Shown: piece after piece, positions 1 through 25,404 of the stretch | Numbering within the stretch: the first letter of the stretch is position 1 | Layout: each line of letters starts with the position of its first letter | IMG/VR virus record: IMGVR_UViG_2534681674_000010 | DNA from: a virus | Taxonomy: Duplodnaviria; Heunggongvirae; Uroviricota; Caudoviricetes | Strand: one strand, 5' to 3' | DNA: 25,404 bases | The notes under the pieces: generated by a model | The model's input: only the letters and a program-made list of their open reading frames with translations | Database searches by the model: none | What the model was told of the DNA's origin: nothing | Translations under genes and position numbers: made by a program

Positions 1-149
1 GTTGCGTTTGCCAGCTCCAGCTCTCTGGCTTTTTTATCGCGCTGCGCTTTGTAGGTGATGGCGTTATCACGGTAATGATTCAGCCCCAGACTAAGCGCAC
101 CACAGGCCACCAGCAGGGCAATGATGACCACACACAGTACGCGGTTCAT
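1..149 (-). CDS. Rz: Rz-like spanin, N-terminal 49 codons; gene continues beyond window start
   Basis: Minus-strand ATG at 149; translation MNRVLCVVIIALLVACGALSLGLNHYRDNAITYKAQRDKKARELELANA closely matches recalled lambda Rz N-terminus. Confidence 0.8.
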   Translation of the reverse strand, partial: MNRVLCVVIIALLVACGALSLGLNHYRDNAITYKAQRDKKARELELANA

Positions 150-150
150 T

Positions 151-249
151 TCACCACCAGCGTATCTGACCGATGAAATAACCGGAGACCATAATCACAA
201 ACACCAGCCAGATAAGAATGAACTTCCAGGTAGATAATTTTTCAGCCAT
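151..249 (-). CDS. hypothetical 32-aa hydrophobic peptide immediately upstream of Rz
   Basis: ATG at 249, GGGAG about 9 nt upstream, translation MAEKLSTWKFILIWLVFVIMVSGYFIGQIRWW, stop 2 nt before Rz ATG; below ORF-track size cutoff. Confidence 0.3.
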   Translation of the reverse strand: MAEKLSTWKFILIWLVFVIMVSGYFIGQIRWW

Positions 250-324
250 CACTCAAATCTCCCGAATCAGTTTGCTAAAATCAAACACACTTTCTCCTTT
301 GACTTTTCCGGAGTCAGGAAACAC

Positions 325-358
325 AAAACCCCACCTGCTGCTAACAAACGGGGTTTTT
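325..358. terminator. hairpin AAAACCCC-N17-GGGGTTTT between endolysin and Rz; possible bidirectional terminator
   Basis: 8-bp perfect inverted repeat with 17-nt loop, A/T runs on both sides. Confidence 0.3.
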
Positions 359-447
359 ACTTTTATTCACTCAGGTTTTGCCAGTTCGCAGGATTTCGTG
401 TTATCCGTCCGCGTTGGCCAACGTCATTTTTCAGCAAAATATTCTGC

Positions 448-982
448 TTATCTGTCGATACCCCAGCACGCCAGCGCGCTCTCCTGGTCACGACGGGATA
501 CCTGACCATAGCAATTATTTGAGCGGATACGGCAGTCTCTGCCTCCGTCCTTAATCCACCAGCGAATCGCTTCACACGCTCCCCTGCGATCGCCTGCATT
601 AATTCGTTTATAAAACGTCGACGGGAAACACTTACCGGGGCCAATGTTATACGGGCAGAATGACGCGATCCCCGCTTTCTGGGGTTCAGTCAGTGGCACT
701 TTGATTGTTTTTCTCCACCCATGCCAGCGCCTTATCACGCTCAATGGCGTTAACCCGGTCGCATTTCCCCTTCGACAGCTTCATGCCAGGAATAACAGGC
801 TTACCATCCACCCGGGTGGCTCCACGGCAGATGGTCCAGATACCCGCACCATCACGGTATGCCGTGGTGTGGTTACCTTCTTTTTCGTCAAGAAACTGGT
901 CGAGAATTTCAGGCGCAGAAGCACCTGCGGCAATCAGCGCCAGAACGGCAGCCGACAGGCCGTATTTGATTTTTGTGTTCAT
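448..982 (-). pseudogene. R: SAR-type endolysin (lysozyme) split over two frames by an apparent 1-nt insertion near 705-706
   Basis: ORF 686..982 gives signal-anchor N-terminus MNTKIKYGLSAAVLALIAAGASAP...WVEKN; ORF 448..744 continues IKVPLTEPQKAGIASFCPYNIGPGK...RDQESALACWGIDR in another frame; 535 nt span is not a multiple of 3. Confidence 0.65.
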
Positions 983-1018
983 GGATATATTAAATATTCA
1001 GCCGCTGTCCCAGGCCCA

Positions 1019-1579
1019 CTAAATACGCACTTTCAGATAAGTCAGTCCGGGATGAAGCCAGTAAGCCGGCACTTTTTTAAAGGGTGGAGTATTAAAATTA
1101 CGAAGAAGAGCCTCCCGCACAATTGCATCCTTATCAGCACCACTGGCCAGCGCTTCAATCTCAGCGGCTACCTGCAGATACCCCATGCAACGACCAATGC
1201 GCTGCATCAGCCCCTGTTTTTTATTGTTCTTCAGGTAATCAATGGCAAATTCAATGAGCGTCTCACTGTGCTGGTGCGATGGCAGTGTTACTTTTCCATT
1301 TTCTGATATGGTGATTTTCCCGTCATCACCGGATACAACAAAGGATGGCCGGTTACACTCCCATTCCAGCTCACTGCAATTATCATTATGAATACTGAAA
1401 CACTCTGCGAGATTTCTGCTCATCACTTTCCGACAATAATCGTCAAACGCAGCAAACTGCTCATCGCGGCGTTTTTTTTCATCTTCAGAAGGCATCAGCG
1501 CCGACAGTTTTTTATTCAGTTCAGCAATTTCATTTTCCAGACGACTGAAGCGCTGATTCATTTCTTCATGGTTCATCAC
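1019..1579 (-). CDS. hypothetical 186-aa protein between holin and endolysin (coiled-coil N-terminus, Cys-containing, no TM segment)
   Basis: Intact ORF; ATG directly abuts holin stop (1580-1582); no recognisable family. Confidence 0.6.
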   Translation of the reverse strand: MMNHEEMNQRFSRLENEIAELNKKLSALMPSEDEKKRRDEQFAAFDDYCRKVMSRNLAECFSIHNDNCSELEWECNRPSFVVSGDDGKITISENGKVTLPSHQHSETLIEFAIDYLKNNKKQGLMQRIGRCMGYLQVAAEIEALASGADKDAIVREALLRNFNTPPFKKVPAYWLHPGLTYLKVRI

Positions 1580-1796
1580 CTACTCTCCCCGTGCCGCCTT
1601 ACGCCGGTCTTCTTTAATCTTGAAATACAGGTTCGTCAGGTACGTCAGCAGACCAAACAGCAGACTCCCCAGCACGCCTATTGCCGCCCACTGAGACGGG
1701 GAAACCCCTGTCCAGCAACTGCAGGAACCAGTAGCCCGTTCCCACCGCTGACGTGGTGTATGACACACCTGTTGTGATTTTTTCCATCTGGTACAT
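1580..1796 (-). pseudogene. S: class II pinholin (phage 21 S21-like) with apparent +1 frameshift in a G4 run (plus 1705-1708)
   Basis: ORF 1614..1796 N-terminus [29 protein letters not shown] then out of frame; ORF 1580..1825 C-terminus [41 protein letters not shown] matches recalled S21; removing one G restores a ~72-aa holin. Confidence 0.65.
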
Positions 1797-1872
1797 ACCC
1801 CGTCTCCCGCAATCCGGAAGCTCACAACATGAAAAAGGCCAGCAGCTGTTTACTGATGGCCCTGACTCCCCG

Positions 1873-23282: not shown

Positions 23283-23283
23283 A

Positions 23284-23583
23284 TCACTGCCCGGTTGTAT
23301 GCGCGAGGTTACCGACTGCGGCCTGAGTTTTTAAGTGACGTAAAACCGTGTTGAGGCCAACGCCCATAATGCGTGCACTGGCGCGACATCCGACGCCATT
23401 CATGGCCATATCAATGATTTTCTGGTGCGTACCGGGCTGAGAGGCGGTGTAAGTGAACTGTAGTTGCCATGTTTTACGGCAAGGAGAGCAGAGATAGCGC
23501 TGATGTCCGGCAGTGCTTTTGCCGTTACGCACCACGCCTTCAGTAGCGGAGCAGGAAGGACATCTGATGGAAATGGAAGCCAC
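23284..23583 (-). CDS. insA: IS1 InsA (C-terminus altered relative to canonical)
   Basis: [68 protein letters not shown]... Confidence 0.8.
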
Positions 23584-23802
23584 GCAAGCACCTTAAAATC
23601 ACCATCATACACTAAATCAGTAAGTTGGCAGCATTACCGAGATTGTTTTGTCGGAACTGATACGCTGGCGCTAATAGGTAGTAGGGTTCTTATGCTAAAC
23701 ATACAACCTCTTTCTTAATTCTCGAACCTGTTTAGGATTCTGTGTAAATTCAAAATAAACCTGTCTGAACATTCCTAACAAACATCCACCGGACATGACA
23801 AC

Positions 23803-23830
23803 AAAAAACCGGAGCCGGACTCCGGTTTTT
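23803..23830. terminator. bidirectional intrinsic terminator downstream of the tail fibre region
   Basis: AAAAAA-CCGGAG-ccgga-CTCCGG-TTTTT. Confidence 0.55.
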
Positions 23831-23843
23831 GTGAAGCTGTCGG

Positions 23844-24092
23844 CTATTTCATTCCGCCAATATTTTCCCACCTCCCGTCAGCACGCAGGATTTGCAGCGG
23901 TCTTACCACGCACTGTATCTGCTTTTTATCCGCATCCAGTATCACCACCTGCGTGATTACCCTGTCCTGCTCTGGGATAATGCCATTCTCATCTGACTCC
24001 AGGATGTCTGCCGGCCCCAGTCGCAGCTGTGCTGTAAGCAACTCCACGTGTTCACGGCCATCATGCTTTCCGCAACCACACAGACGCTGCAT
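23844..24092 (-). CDS. hypothetical ORF fragment downstream of tail fibre
   Basis: 82-codon ORF with protein-like composition; upstream in-frame sequence closed. Confidence 0.25.
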   Translation of the reverse strand: MQRLCGCGKHDGREHVELLTAQLRLGPADILESDENGIIPEQDRVITQVVILDADKKQIQCVVRPLQILRADGRWENIGGMK

Positions 24093-24180
24093 AAGTTTTT
24101 TAGTATATTCACGTCATTCTCCTGTTCTGCCTGTATCACTGCCCACTTCATCCAGCCCCTTAACATCCTGCCACGGCCCG

Positions 24181-25325
24181 TCACCAAACCTGACCTGCAA
24201 ATGCTGAAAAACCCTGAACCCGTGTGGCATCTTTGGGGTCAAGAAAGGTCAGTCCGGTGATGAGTGCGCCATCTGTATCCGGGAACCAGCCATGGCTGTT
24301 TGTCTCAATAATGTTTCCGGCCCCAGACGAAAACGGATTTGTGTCTCCCCCGGGTCGCCCTTCGGTCCCTGAGGTCCGGTTGCCCCCACCGGGCCAGCCG
24401 CACCTGTTTCTCCTTTCGGTCCCTGTGGGCCTGCCGGGCCTGCCGCACCGGTATCTCCCTTTGGACCCTGTGGACCTGCATTTCCCGTCAGACCGGTCTC
24501 TCCCCGCTCTCCCTTATCCCCCTTCGGCCCCTGAGGGCCAGCGGGCCCCTGTTCCCCCTTTGGCCCGGGAGGTCCCACCACGGTGGGGATTCGGTTTACG
24601 GCGTCTTCCGCCGCTATCCTGCTTTGTTCCGCTGACTGTGCGCTTTCTGCTGACTCCCGGGCTTTTTCTGTTGCGGTCGTTGCATCCCTGGCTGCATTAC
24701 CGGCTGCACTTTCTGCCGTCTTTCTTGACAATTCAGCTTCTGCTGCACTTTGTGATGACTCACTGGCTTTTTGAGCGGCCGCAGAAGCCGAGGACGAGGA
24801 CGCATCCTCTGACTGCTTTGCAGCGGCTGCACTTTCTGCCGCCTGCCGGGCTGACTCCGATGCATCCCCTGCTGAAGTGTCAGCATTTGCAGCGCTCTCT
24901 TCTGCCTTACTGGATGATATGCCGGCATTCCTCGCGGACGTCTCCGCCTCTCCGGCATTCTTCTTCGCCTCCTCAGCGTGACGCGCCGCTTCTTCCACCA
25001 TCAGTTCAAAACGACGCAGTGCCTCCGGCCGGACGTCATCCTCCGACATGGCACCGAGAAAATCATTCAGCGTCCCCGGTTGAGAATCTTCATACACGGT
25101 GATGGTCCCGGCATGTGACGGCGGGAATCCTTCCACCAACAGAATGACGCTGTACTGACCGTACTCAACGTCCATGCTGTAACGACCGGCTTCATCCGGA
25201 TTTTCAGAGGCCACCGTGTTCACCACCACCGTGCTGCTGGTCCGTCTGGCTTTCAGTTGAATGGTGCAGTTCTCTACCGGTTTTCCTGTGCCGTCTTTCA
25301 GTACACCTGAAATCTTTACTGCCAT
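24181..25325 (-). pseudogene. stf: side tail fibre protein (lambda Stf-like N-terminus, Ala/Ser/Glu-rich linker, collagen-like Gly-X-Y repeats) with apparent 1-nt deletion near 24316-24324
   Basis: [28 protein letters not shown]... matches recalled lambda Stf; [28 protein letters not shown]... repeats; after ...RFRLGP the sequence [30 protein letters not shown] continues in another frame to 24181. Confidence 0.7.
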
Positions 25326-25334
25326 ATTCACCCC

Positions 25335-25362
25335 ACAAAAAAGCCCGCCTGAACCGGCGGGC
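25335..25362 (-). terminator. intrinsic terminator upstream of stf (minus orientation)
   Basis: GCCCGCC-ggttca-GGCGGGC followed by TTTTTTGT on minus strand. Confidence 0.45.
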
Positions 25363-25404
25363 TGTCATAACACTGTGTTACCTGGCTAATCAGAACTTAT
25401 AACC

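Follow-up and report, generated by a model that had tools for sequence, protein, structure and literature searches.

Private run-length changes in an EHEC-type ompW prophage contig of Escherichia coli 97.0246 are probably homopolymer errors of a draft assembly

Lambdoid prophages integrated at ompW are known from enterohaemorrhagic Escherichia coli (EHEC), and the LC5678xx records label them 'PPompW'. Near-identical prophages are present in strain FWSEC0007 (O103:H2) and in the O157:H7 strains F6294, TX 265-1 and PV15-279. Their genes are in the order Rz, endolysin, holin, Q, replication, cI/cro, exo, xis and int, and their attachment core lies in the 3' end of ompW. Here we describe the virus record IMGVR_UViG_2534681674_000010, a stretch of 25,404 nt (hereafter the window), which has the same gene order and the same attachment core. 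Positions 1-21346 of the window correspond to the lysis-to-integrase half of ompW-site lambdoid prophages in complete EHEC chromosomes, with 99.7-99.9% identity, while positions 21300-25404 match the opposite prophage end, comprising a DUF4376 pseudogene, an OspG-family effector kinase gene, IS1 and tail fibre genes. The window differs from the EHEC ompW prophages in three private 1-nt indels (in the endolysin, holin and integrase genes), in a private integrase substitution (K105R) and in a small patch of substitutions in the DUF6645/SASA esterase gene. Together with IS1 and a tail fibre gene, six private indels are found in the window, and these are, in our view, very probably homopolymer sequencing or consensus errors in a draft assembly.

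The window is identical to the entire contig AEZJ02000045.1 (25,404 bp) of the assembly GCA_000194215.2 from Escherichia coli 97.0246 (taxid 869670). In the supplement of a comparative genomics study, this strain is listed as Shiga toxin-producing E. coli (STEC) O5:H- 97.0246 with the accession AEZJ00000000.2 and the status 'Draft' (PMC4551483). The window thus originates from the shotgun sequencing of a bacterium, as one contig of its draft genome, and not from phage particles. The contig shows no terminal overlap, the window lacks the genes for terminase and head and most of the tail genes, and both contig ends are located in sequence that is multi-copy among EHEC genomes. The possibility that the record represents a complete or excised phage genome was rejected, since it is a whole-genome shotgun (WGS) contig and the top match in the phage collection covers just 34% of the window. 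The underlying biology is ordinary: the window represents an EHEC-type ompW lambdoid prophage with a phage 21-type holin, a lambda-type integrase, an OspG-family kinase and IS1.

The first-pass annotation of the window had reported five single-base indels in conserved genes. Base-by-base comparison revealed that all five are present, at or within 5 nt of the positions given there, and that each is a run-length difference to the closest relatives which breaks an open reading frame (ORF) that is intact in these relatives. Where the relatives have T at 705, C3 at 1705, C4 at 21029, T6 at 23328 and C3 at 24317, the window differs at all five sites. It contains TT at 705-706 in the endolysin gene (A to AA on the coding strand, with a T5 run 1 nt away), CCCC at 1705-1708 in the holin gene (39 of 39 fetched loci have C3), CCC at 21029-21031 in the integrase gene, T5 on the plus strand at 23328-23332 in the frameshift run of IS1 (A5C instead of A6C on the coding strand) and CC at 24317-24318 in the tail fibre gene. 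The count of five turned out to be incomplete. A sixth private coding event is a 2-nt deletion at 24207-24211, also in the tail fibre gene, which shortens A7 to A5; all seven of the seven fetched loci have A7. Thus, six of the six private events are gains or losses inside a mononucleotide run, the reference lengths being 1, 3, 4, 6, 7 and 3. Programmed frameshifting or phase variation was considered for the sites outside of IS1 and rejected, since all relatives have a plain intact ORF with a fixed run length.

To what extent these alleles are private was addressed by genotyping every site in all fetched loci, anchored on the flanking sequence. Relatives of the same lineage (L172-L179) were reached via the 169-aa allele of the kinase gene, a marker which is carried on 69 other contigs, and the IS1 and tail fibre events are absent from these eight loci. 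For 81-mers containing the alleles at 705, 1705 and 21029, exact full-length matches were found in none of 3,652, 2,302 and 1,701 complete-genome E. coli records, respectively. Both tail fibre events (24207 and 24317) are missing from 708 records with 6,068 places. In IMG/VR there are no matches for the alleles at 705, 1705 and 21029, while the reference alleles are matched 72 times (705) and 87 times (21029). At the protein level, the truncated lysozyme (98 aa) and integrase (351 aa) products occur on one contig only each among ~15 billion proteins. There is no indication of inheritance of the lesions, as no other record, complete or draft, carries any of the five lesions outside of IS1. The IS1 allele A5 was detected in 41 of 9,187 complete-genome records (70,444 IS1 places). 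The substitution at 20366 in the integrase gene (A to G, K105R) is also private, as none of 1,708 complete-genome records contains it, and the full-length integrase with K105R, once repaired, is not among the 15 billion proteins.

Each of the broken genes is one event away from an intact gene (three bases in the case of the tail fibre gene), and the disabled genes show no secondary decay. The endolysin gene (448-982, minus strand) encodes a protein with the Pfam domain Phage_lysozyme. It is split past residue ~92 into an N-terminal ORF of 98 aa (686-982) and an out-of-frame remainder, and deletion of one T results in a 177-aa endolysin which is 100% identical to WP_001092902.1 of the near-identical relative L001. 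The N-terminus of the endolysin, YGLSAAVLALIAAGASAP, is hydrophobic and Gly/Ala-rich, precedes the Phage_lysozyme domain and, judged by its sequence only, is a candidate signal-anchor-release segment. The gene at 1580-1796 (minus strand) belongs to the class II holins of the phage 21 S (pinholin) family; it runs out of frame after codon 30, and the record has no gene call at this position. When repaired, the holin is 100% identical to WP_000284506.1 and matches PF04971 with E = 7e-33 over profile positions 1-63 of 64.

The lambda-type tyrosine integrase (20053-21182, plus strand) is frameshifted at codon 326, and the annotated product comprises 351 aa (20053-21108). The equivalents of lambda H308, R311, H333 and Y342 are all located downstream of the shift, and the deposited ORF lacks the HxxR box, the second His and the Tyr. 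In the repaired integrase, which has an arm-binding and a catalytic domain (PF09003 and PF00589) and was aligned to lambda Int (5j0n, 2e-55), the HxxR box, the second His and the catalytic Tyr are matched. This repaired protein differs by two residues from the RefSeq protein of the relatives.

The private changes in the window are strongly unbalanced. Where a near-identical relative exists, six indel events stand against one substitution (20366). This count covers positions 1-2001 and 4964-21346 (compared to L001), 21319-24038 (compared to the lineage relatives L175 and L176) and 24185-24340 (compared to many genomes), and 20366 is the sole private substitution outside of the patch at 2000-5000. 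Among the events recorded in mutation-accumulation lines of two Vibrio species, 8-21% are indels, with or without mismatch repair (PMC5854121). At such a share, the probability of at least six indels among seven events is 2e-6 to 6e-4, a rough value as it was transferred across genera. Further, the discrepancies depend on the length of the run: the rate per run is 7e-5 for 1-mers, 0.3% for 3-4-mers, 4% for 6-mers and 10% for 7-mers, including the two shared sites (2408 and 21773) described in the next paragraph.

The window also harbours an internal control. At 2408-2412, in an intergenic region, it has A5 where most relatives have A6, and A5 is also found in the complete genome of SMN197SH3 (L009). 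At 21774-21775, in the DUF4376 pseudogene, it has G2 (G3 in L003 and L004), and G2 is present in eight of the eight lineage relatives L172-L179. Since other genomes carry the same lengths at 2408 and 21774, these two differences are genuine polymorphisms, and suspicion does not extend to every run-length difference in the window. The assumption that all eight run-length differences are errors was rejected for the same reason, as the sites 2408 and 21773 are common to independent genomes. According to a published criterion, run lengths which are consistent within a clade are authentic, while sporadic outliers are suspect (PMC4746626). In our case the shared run-length variants are located in non-coding or pseudogene DNA, and the singletons break genes.

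The first-pass annotation had left the choice between decay and sequencing error unresolved. The singleton alleles, the repair of the genes, the ratio of 6:1, the dependence on run length and the origin from a draft contig strongly favour homopolymer error, and leave genuine decay as a weak rival. We directly observed where the contig comes from, at which positions the alleles lie and that they are unique, that repair restores the genes, that indels outnumber substitutions and that discrepancies depend on run length; the technical cause is what we infer from these observations. Run lengths would have been miscounted by the sequencing chemistry and/or in the consensus step at 705, 1705, 21029, 23328, 24207 and 24317, in prophage DNA which is partly multi-copy in the genome. 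The genes for holin, endolysin, integrase and tail fibre and the IS1 genes of the prophage in strain 97.0246 would then be intact, as they are in its near-identical relatives. The joint between int and the tail fibre genes would correspond to two elements in tandem at ompW or, less likely, would originate from reads of excised circles. The events in the window resemble the homopolymer errors of flow-based and long-read sequencing in that they are run-length changes, are singletons, scale with run length and outnumber substitutions. In one of them a 1-mer is called too long, and in another a 7-mer has lost 2 nt; both are compatible with homopolymer error but are not diagnostic of it.

Several points speak against an origin by error. 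The literature on the WGS project, the assembly and sibling accessions provided only the status 'Draft' and the serotype O5:H-, and no platform or coverage; these drafts of 2011-2012 were presumably 454-based. Prophages of EHEC are frequently truly defective, and natural slippage also prefers homopolymers and scales with run length. For a finished consensus, one error per ~4 kb is a high rate. The IS1 allele A5 is present in 41 other records, so that an independent origin is possible, and the window contains genuine private substitutions (20366 and the patch at 2000-5000), so that it is no mere copy of a known prophage. Finally, the mutation spectrum used for comparison is based on Vibrio and not on E. 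coli data.

Within the error explanation, it is conceivable, and we suggest it only tentatively, that the consensus was corrupted by collapsed paralogues (lambdoid prophages and IS1) and not by the chemistry of a platform. In line with this sub-type of the explanation, four of the six events are located in segments which are multi-copy across many EHEC genomes, with up to 11 copies per complete genome for the endolysin and seven for the holin segment, and with a median of 10 copies for IS1 and nine for the tail fibre. In addition, both contig ends are in such repeats, and the tail fibre haplotype looks blended. However, the run lengths of the window exist in no paralogue of any complete genome, so that merging alone is insufficient, and the integrase segment is affected although its median is one copy per genome. 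A mixed origin, in which most indels are artefacts and one or two are genuine, appears unlikely. The best candidates for genuine changes would be the shortening of A6 to A5 in IS1 and the lesions in the mosaic, multi-copy tail fibre gene. Indeed, A5 recurs in the 41 IS1-containing records mentioned above, the tail fibre haplotype at 24036-24136 occurs in no complete genome, so that this region differs beyond the indels, and complete EHEC genomes contain tail fibre and tail genes that are annotated as frameshifted. On the other hand, IS1 is otherwise identical to the same-site copy in the lineage relatives, which carry A6, neither of the tail fibre events is found among 6,068 copies, and the 41 records with A5 may themselves contain homopolymer errors of long reads.

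Genuine recent pseudogenisation, in which real frameshifts would 'ground' the prophage, possibly in a mismatch-repair-deficient lineage, while the effector kinase is kept as cargo, is very improbable. It is true that all lesions strike functions for lysis, excision or infectivity, that the cargo kinase allele is intact and common to 69 contigs, and that four of the five substitutions which are private when compared to seven relatives are transitions. Moreover, 1-nt indels arise naturally by homopolymer slippage, which increases at least 100-fold in mutators (PMC5854121). That six of six events are in coding DNA is not unusual in itself (~0.85^6 = 0.38). Against real decay stands the absence of the five non-IS1 lesions from all relatives, complete or draft, and the 100% identity of the repaired holin and endolysin to those of the relatives, without secondary decay. 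Six independent frameshifts would be needed within the time of one substitution, the ratio of 6:1 between indels and substitutions is improbable even with a mutator spectrum (<=6e-4), and half of the events affect short runs of at most 4 nt, in which slippage is rare. A variant with still less in its favour would be a short burst of six real frameshifts, for instance in an ancestor of the O5:H- STEC with a transient deficiency in mismatch repair, abolishing lysis, excision, adsorption and IS1 mobility. If true, such a burst would lock an effector-carrying prophage in the chromosome and would offer a snapshot of 'grounding' before secondary decay. Altogether, homopolymer error in the draft assembly is the explanation we prefer.

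The IS1 copy (22872-23638, minus strand, 767 bp) has 23-nt terminal inverted repeats and the frames insA and insB', and its InsA contains a zinc-ribbon and a helix-turn-helix (HTH) domain. It is identical at 899 of 900 positions to the same-site IS1 of L003, and the T5/T6 base of IS1 is the only difference between the window and each of L175 and L176 over positions 21319-24038. Compared to IS1 elements with the programmed -1 frameshift site, the window shares the inverted repeats, the InsA domains and the insB' frame and differs in that the slippery motif A6C is replaced by A5C. With A5C, insB' is positioned in the +1 and not in the -1 frame relative to insA, and, were this run length real, no InsAB' transposase could be produced. 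Next to IS1, the gene of the OspG-family type III secretion system effector kinase (22205-22714, minus strand) is present as the 169-aa allele with an in-frame deletion of 75 nt. Its deletion point is at ~22275-22285, where 25 residues are lost between direct repeats of 10-11 nt. Unlike the frameshifts, this deletion allele is, to judge by its distribution, genuine, because it is found on 69 other contigs.

The tail fibre N-terminal-domain gene (24114-25325, minus strand) contains collagen-like repeats and harbours two of the indels, 110 nt apart. The events at 24207 and 24317 would jointly restore the frame, yet a stop codon intervenes and the ORF ends at 24249; restoring the three bases results in a single tail fibre ORF of 404 aa. 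The gene is mosaic. None of 5,426 complete genomes matches its haplotype at 24036-24136 exactly (97% at best), and in the region 24390-24560 it has 33 residues of collagen-like Gly-X-Y repeats fewer than that of L003. Either a true recombinant allele or a consensus mixed together from paralogous copies of the prophage could explain this haplotype. A run of T6 or T7 at 24096-24101 overlaps the start of the gene for the tail fibre C-terminal domain: T7 results in an 89-aa product starting with MNILKK and T6 in an 82-aa product starting with MQRLCG. Both lengths occur in complete genomes, and either natural variation or repeated miscalling accounts for this run. Further, prophage genes annotated as 'frameshifted' by RefSeq (terminase, gpJ, DUF4765, DUF1076 and tail fibre) are found in the complete genomes of FRIK944 (L002) and 7.1_Anguil (L004). 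Old drafts are therefore not the only records in which the prophage regions of EHEC show homopolymer errors or real decay, and the 41 records with the IS1 allele A5 may be similar cases.

Substitutions are concentrated in one part of the window. The region 2002-4963, from DUF826 to DUF6645/SASA esterase, holds 19 of the 21 substitutions in comparison to the closest relative, and the best complete-genome match over 2420-5000 has only 99.5% identity. The distribution of the substitutions suggests a small recombination patch within an otherwise near-identical prophage. An exact look-up of the 648-aa DUF6645 protein retrieved the window contig only. At 4800-4849 there is a partial match to the small RNA STnc100 (34 bits, below the gathering score), which is cut off at the edge of the searched segment. 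At 4935-4994 (minus strand), relatives carry a 71-nt 'tRNA-Met' annotated by RefSeq; here the Rfam tRNA model gives a weak match of 33.9 bits (gathering score 29), and ARAGORN found no tRNA in the window, nor in L001, where RefSeq places the tRNA-Met. A substitution at 4963, which is private to the window in comparison to seven relatives, falls within this annotated segment. In the early region, genes for a toxin of the RelE/ParE family and an HTH antitoxin (9705-10386) are followed by a hokD-type toxin gene (~10489-10701). The toxin/antitoxin and hokD-type genes are intact and identical to those of the relatives.

The value of these observations lies mainly in data hygiene. If the frameshifts were taken at face value, lysis, integration and host recognition of this prophage would all be scored as defective and its IS1 as immobile. 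The truncated 'integrase' EIG90352.1 and 'lysozyme' EIG90325.1 are already present in protein databases as unique sequences. Our analysis illustrates that artefact and decay can be separated without reads, by asking whether an allele is a singleton or shared within a clade, by counting private indels against substitutions, and by determining whether identity is regained when the indel is undone. Its main use is therefore a caution on annotation and database quality.

A further feature of the window is the junction between the integrase gene and the tail genes. A phage-borne 3' fragment of ompW (21228-21353, minus strand) contains the attachment core at ~21319-21347, GGTGGTATCGATATCCATGTACCACACTG, which emerged as common sequence when the window was aligned to both prophage ends of FWSEC0007. 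In this alignment the left arm of the window corresponds to the int side and the right arm to the tail side of the FWSEC0007 prophage, which is a POP' arrangement. The window had been interpreted as an excisable genome in attP form. The POP' type of the junction holds true, but a WGS contig without terminal overlap and without head and terminase genes does not represent such a genome. It was also considered awkward that a dead integrase coincides with the attP form. This conflict vanishes because tandem integration yields the same junction, as exemplified by the tandem-prophage joint in the completed chromosome of O157:H7 strain 7.1_Anguil. Thus, when a contig shows an attP-type junction, this should not by itself be taken as a sign of an excised phage, since tandem integration at ompW is seen in completed EHEC chromosomes.

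In the completed chromosome of 7.1_Anguil, the integrase gene is followed by a partial ompW and then by the tail end of a second prophage, and 300 nt at the junction of the window are identical to this joint (window 21180-21480; L004 1375-1682). Unlike in this chromosome, the window contig terminates inside both elements and is compatible with two tandem prophages as well as with one prophage plus circles. A partial ompW after this integrase is also found in the complete EHEC genomes F6294, TX 265-1, FRIK944 and SMN197SH3. Such a partial gene past the integrase indicates a further element beyond it, and, as far as can be seen from the genome sequences, tandem occupancy of the ompW site seems common. 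FRIK944 and EC4115 likewise align over the junction; in FRIK944, the partial ompW is separated from the tail fibre genes by other annotated genes. One completed chromosome, that of 7.1_Anguil, has the same layout as the window, namely int, ompW 3' fragment, DUF4376 pseudogene, OspG-family kinase gene, IS1 and tail fibre genes, and is 99.8% identical to it over positions 21300-22284.

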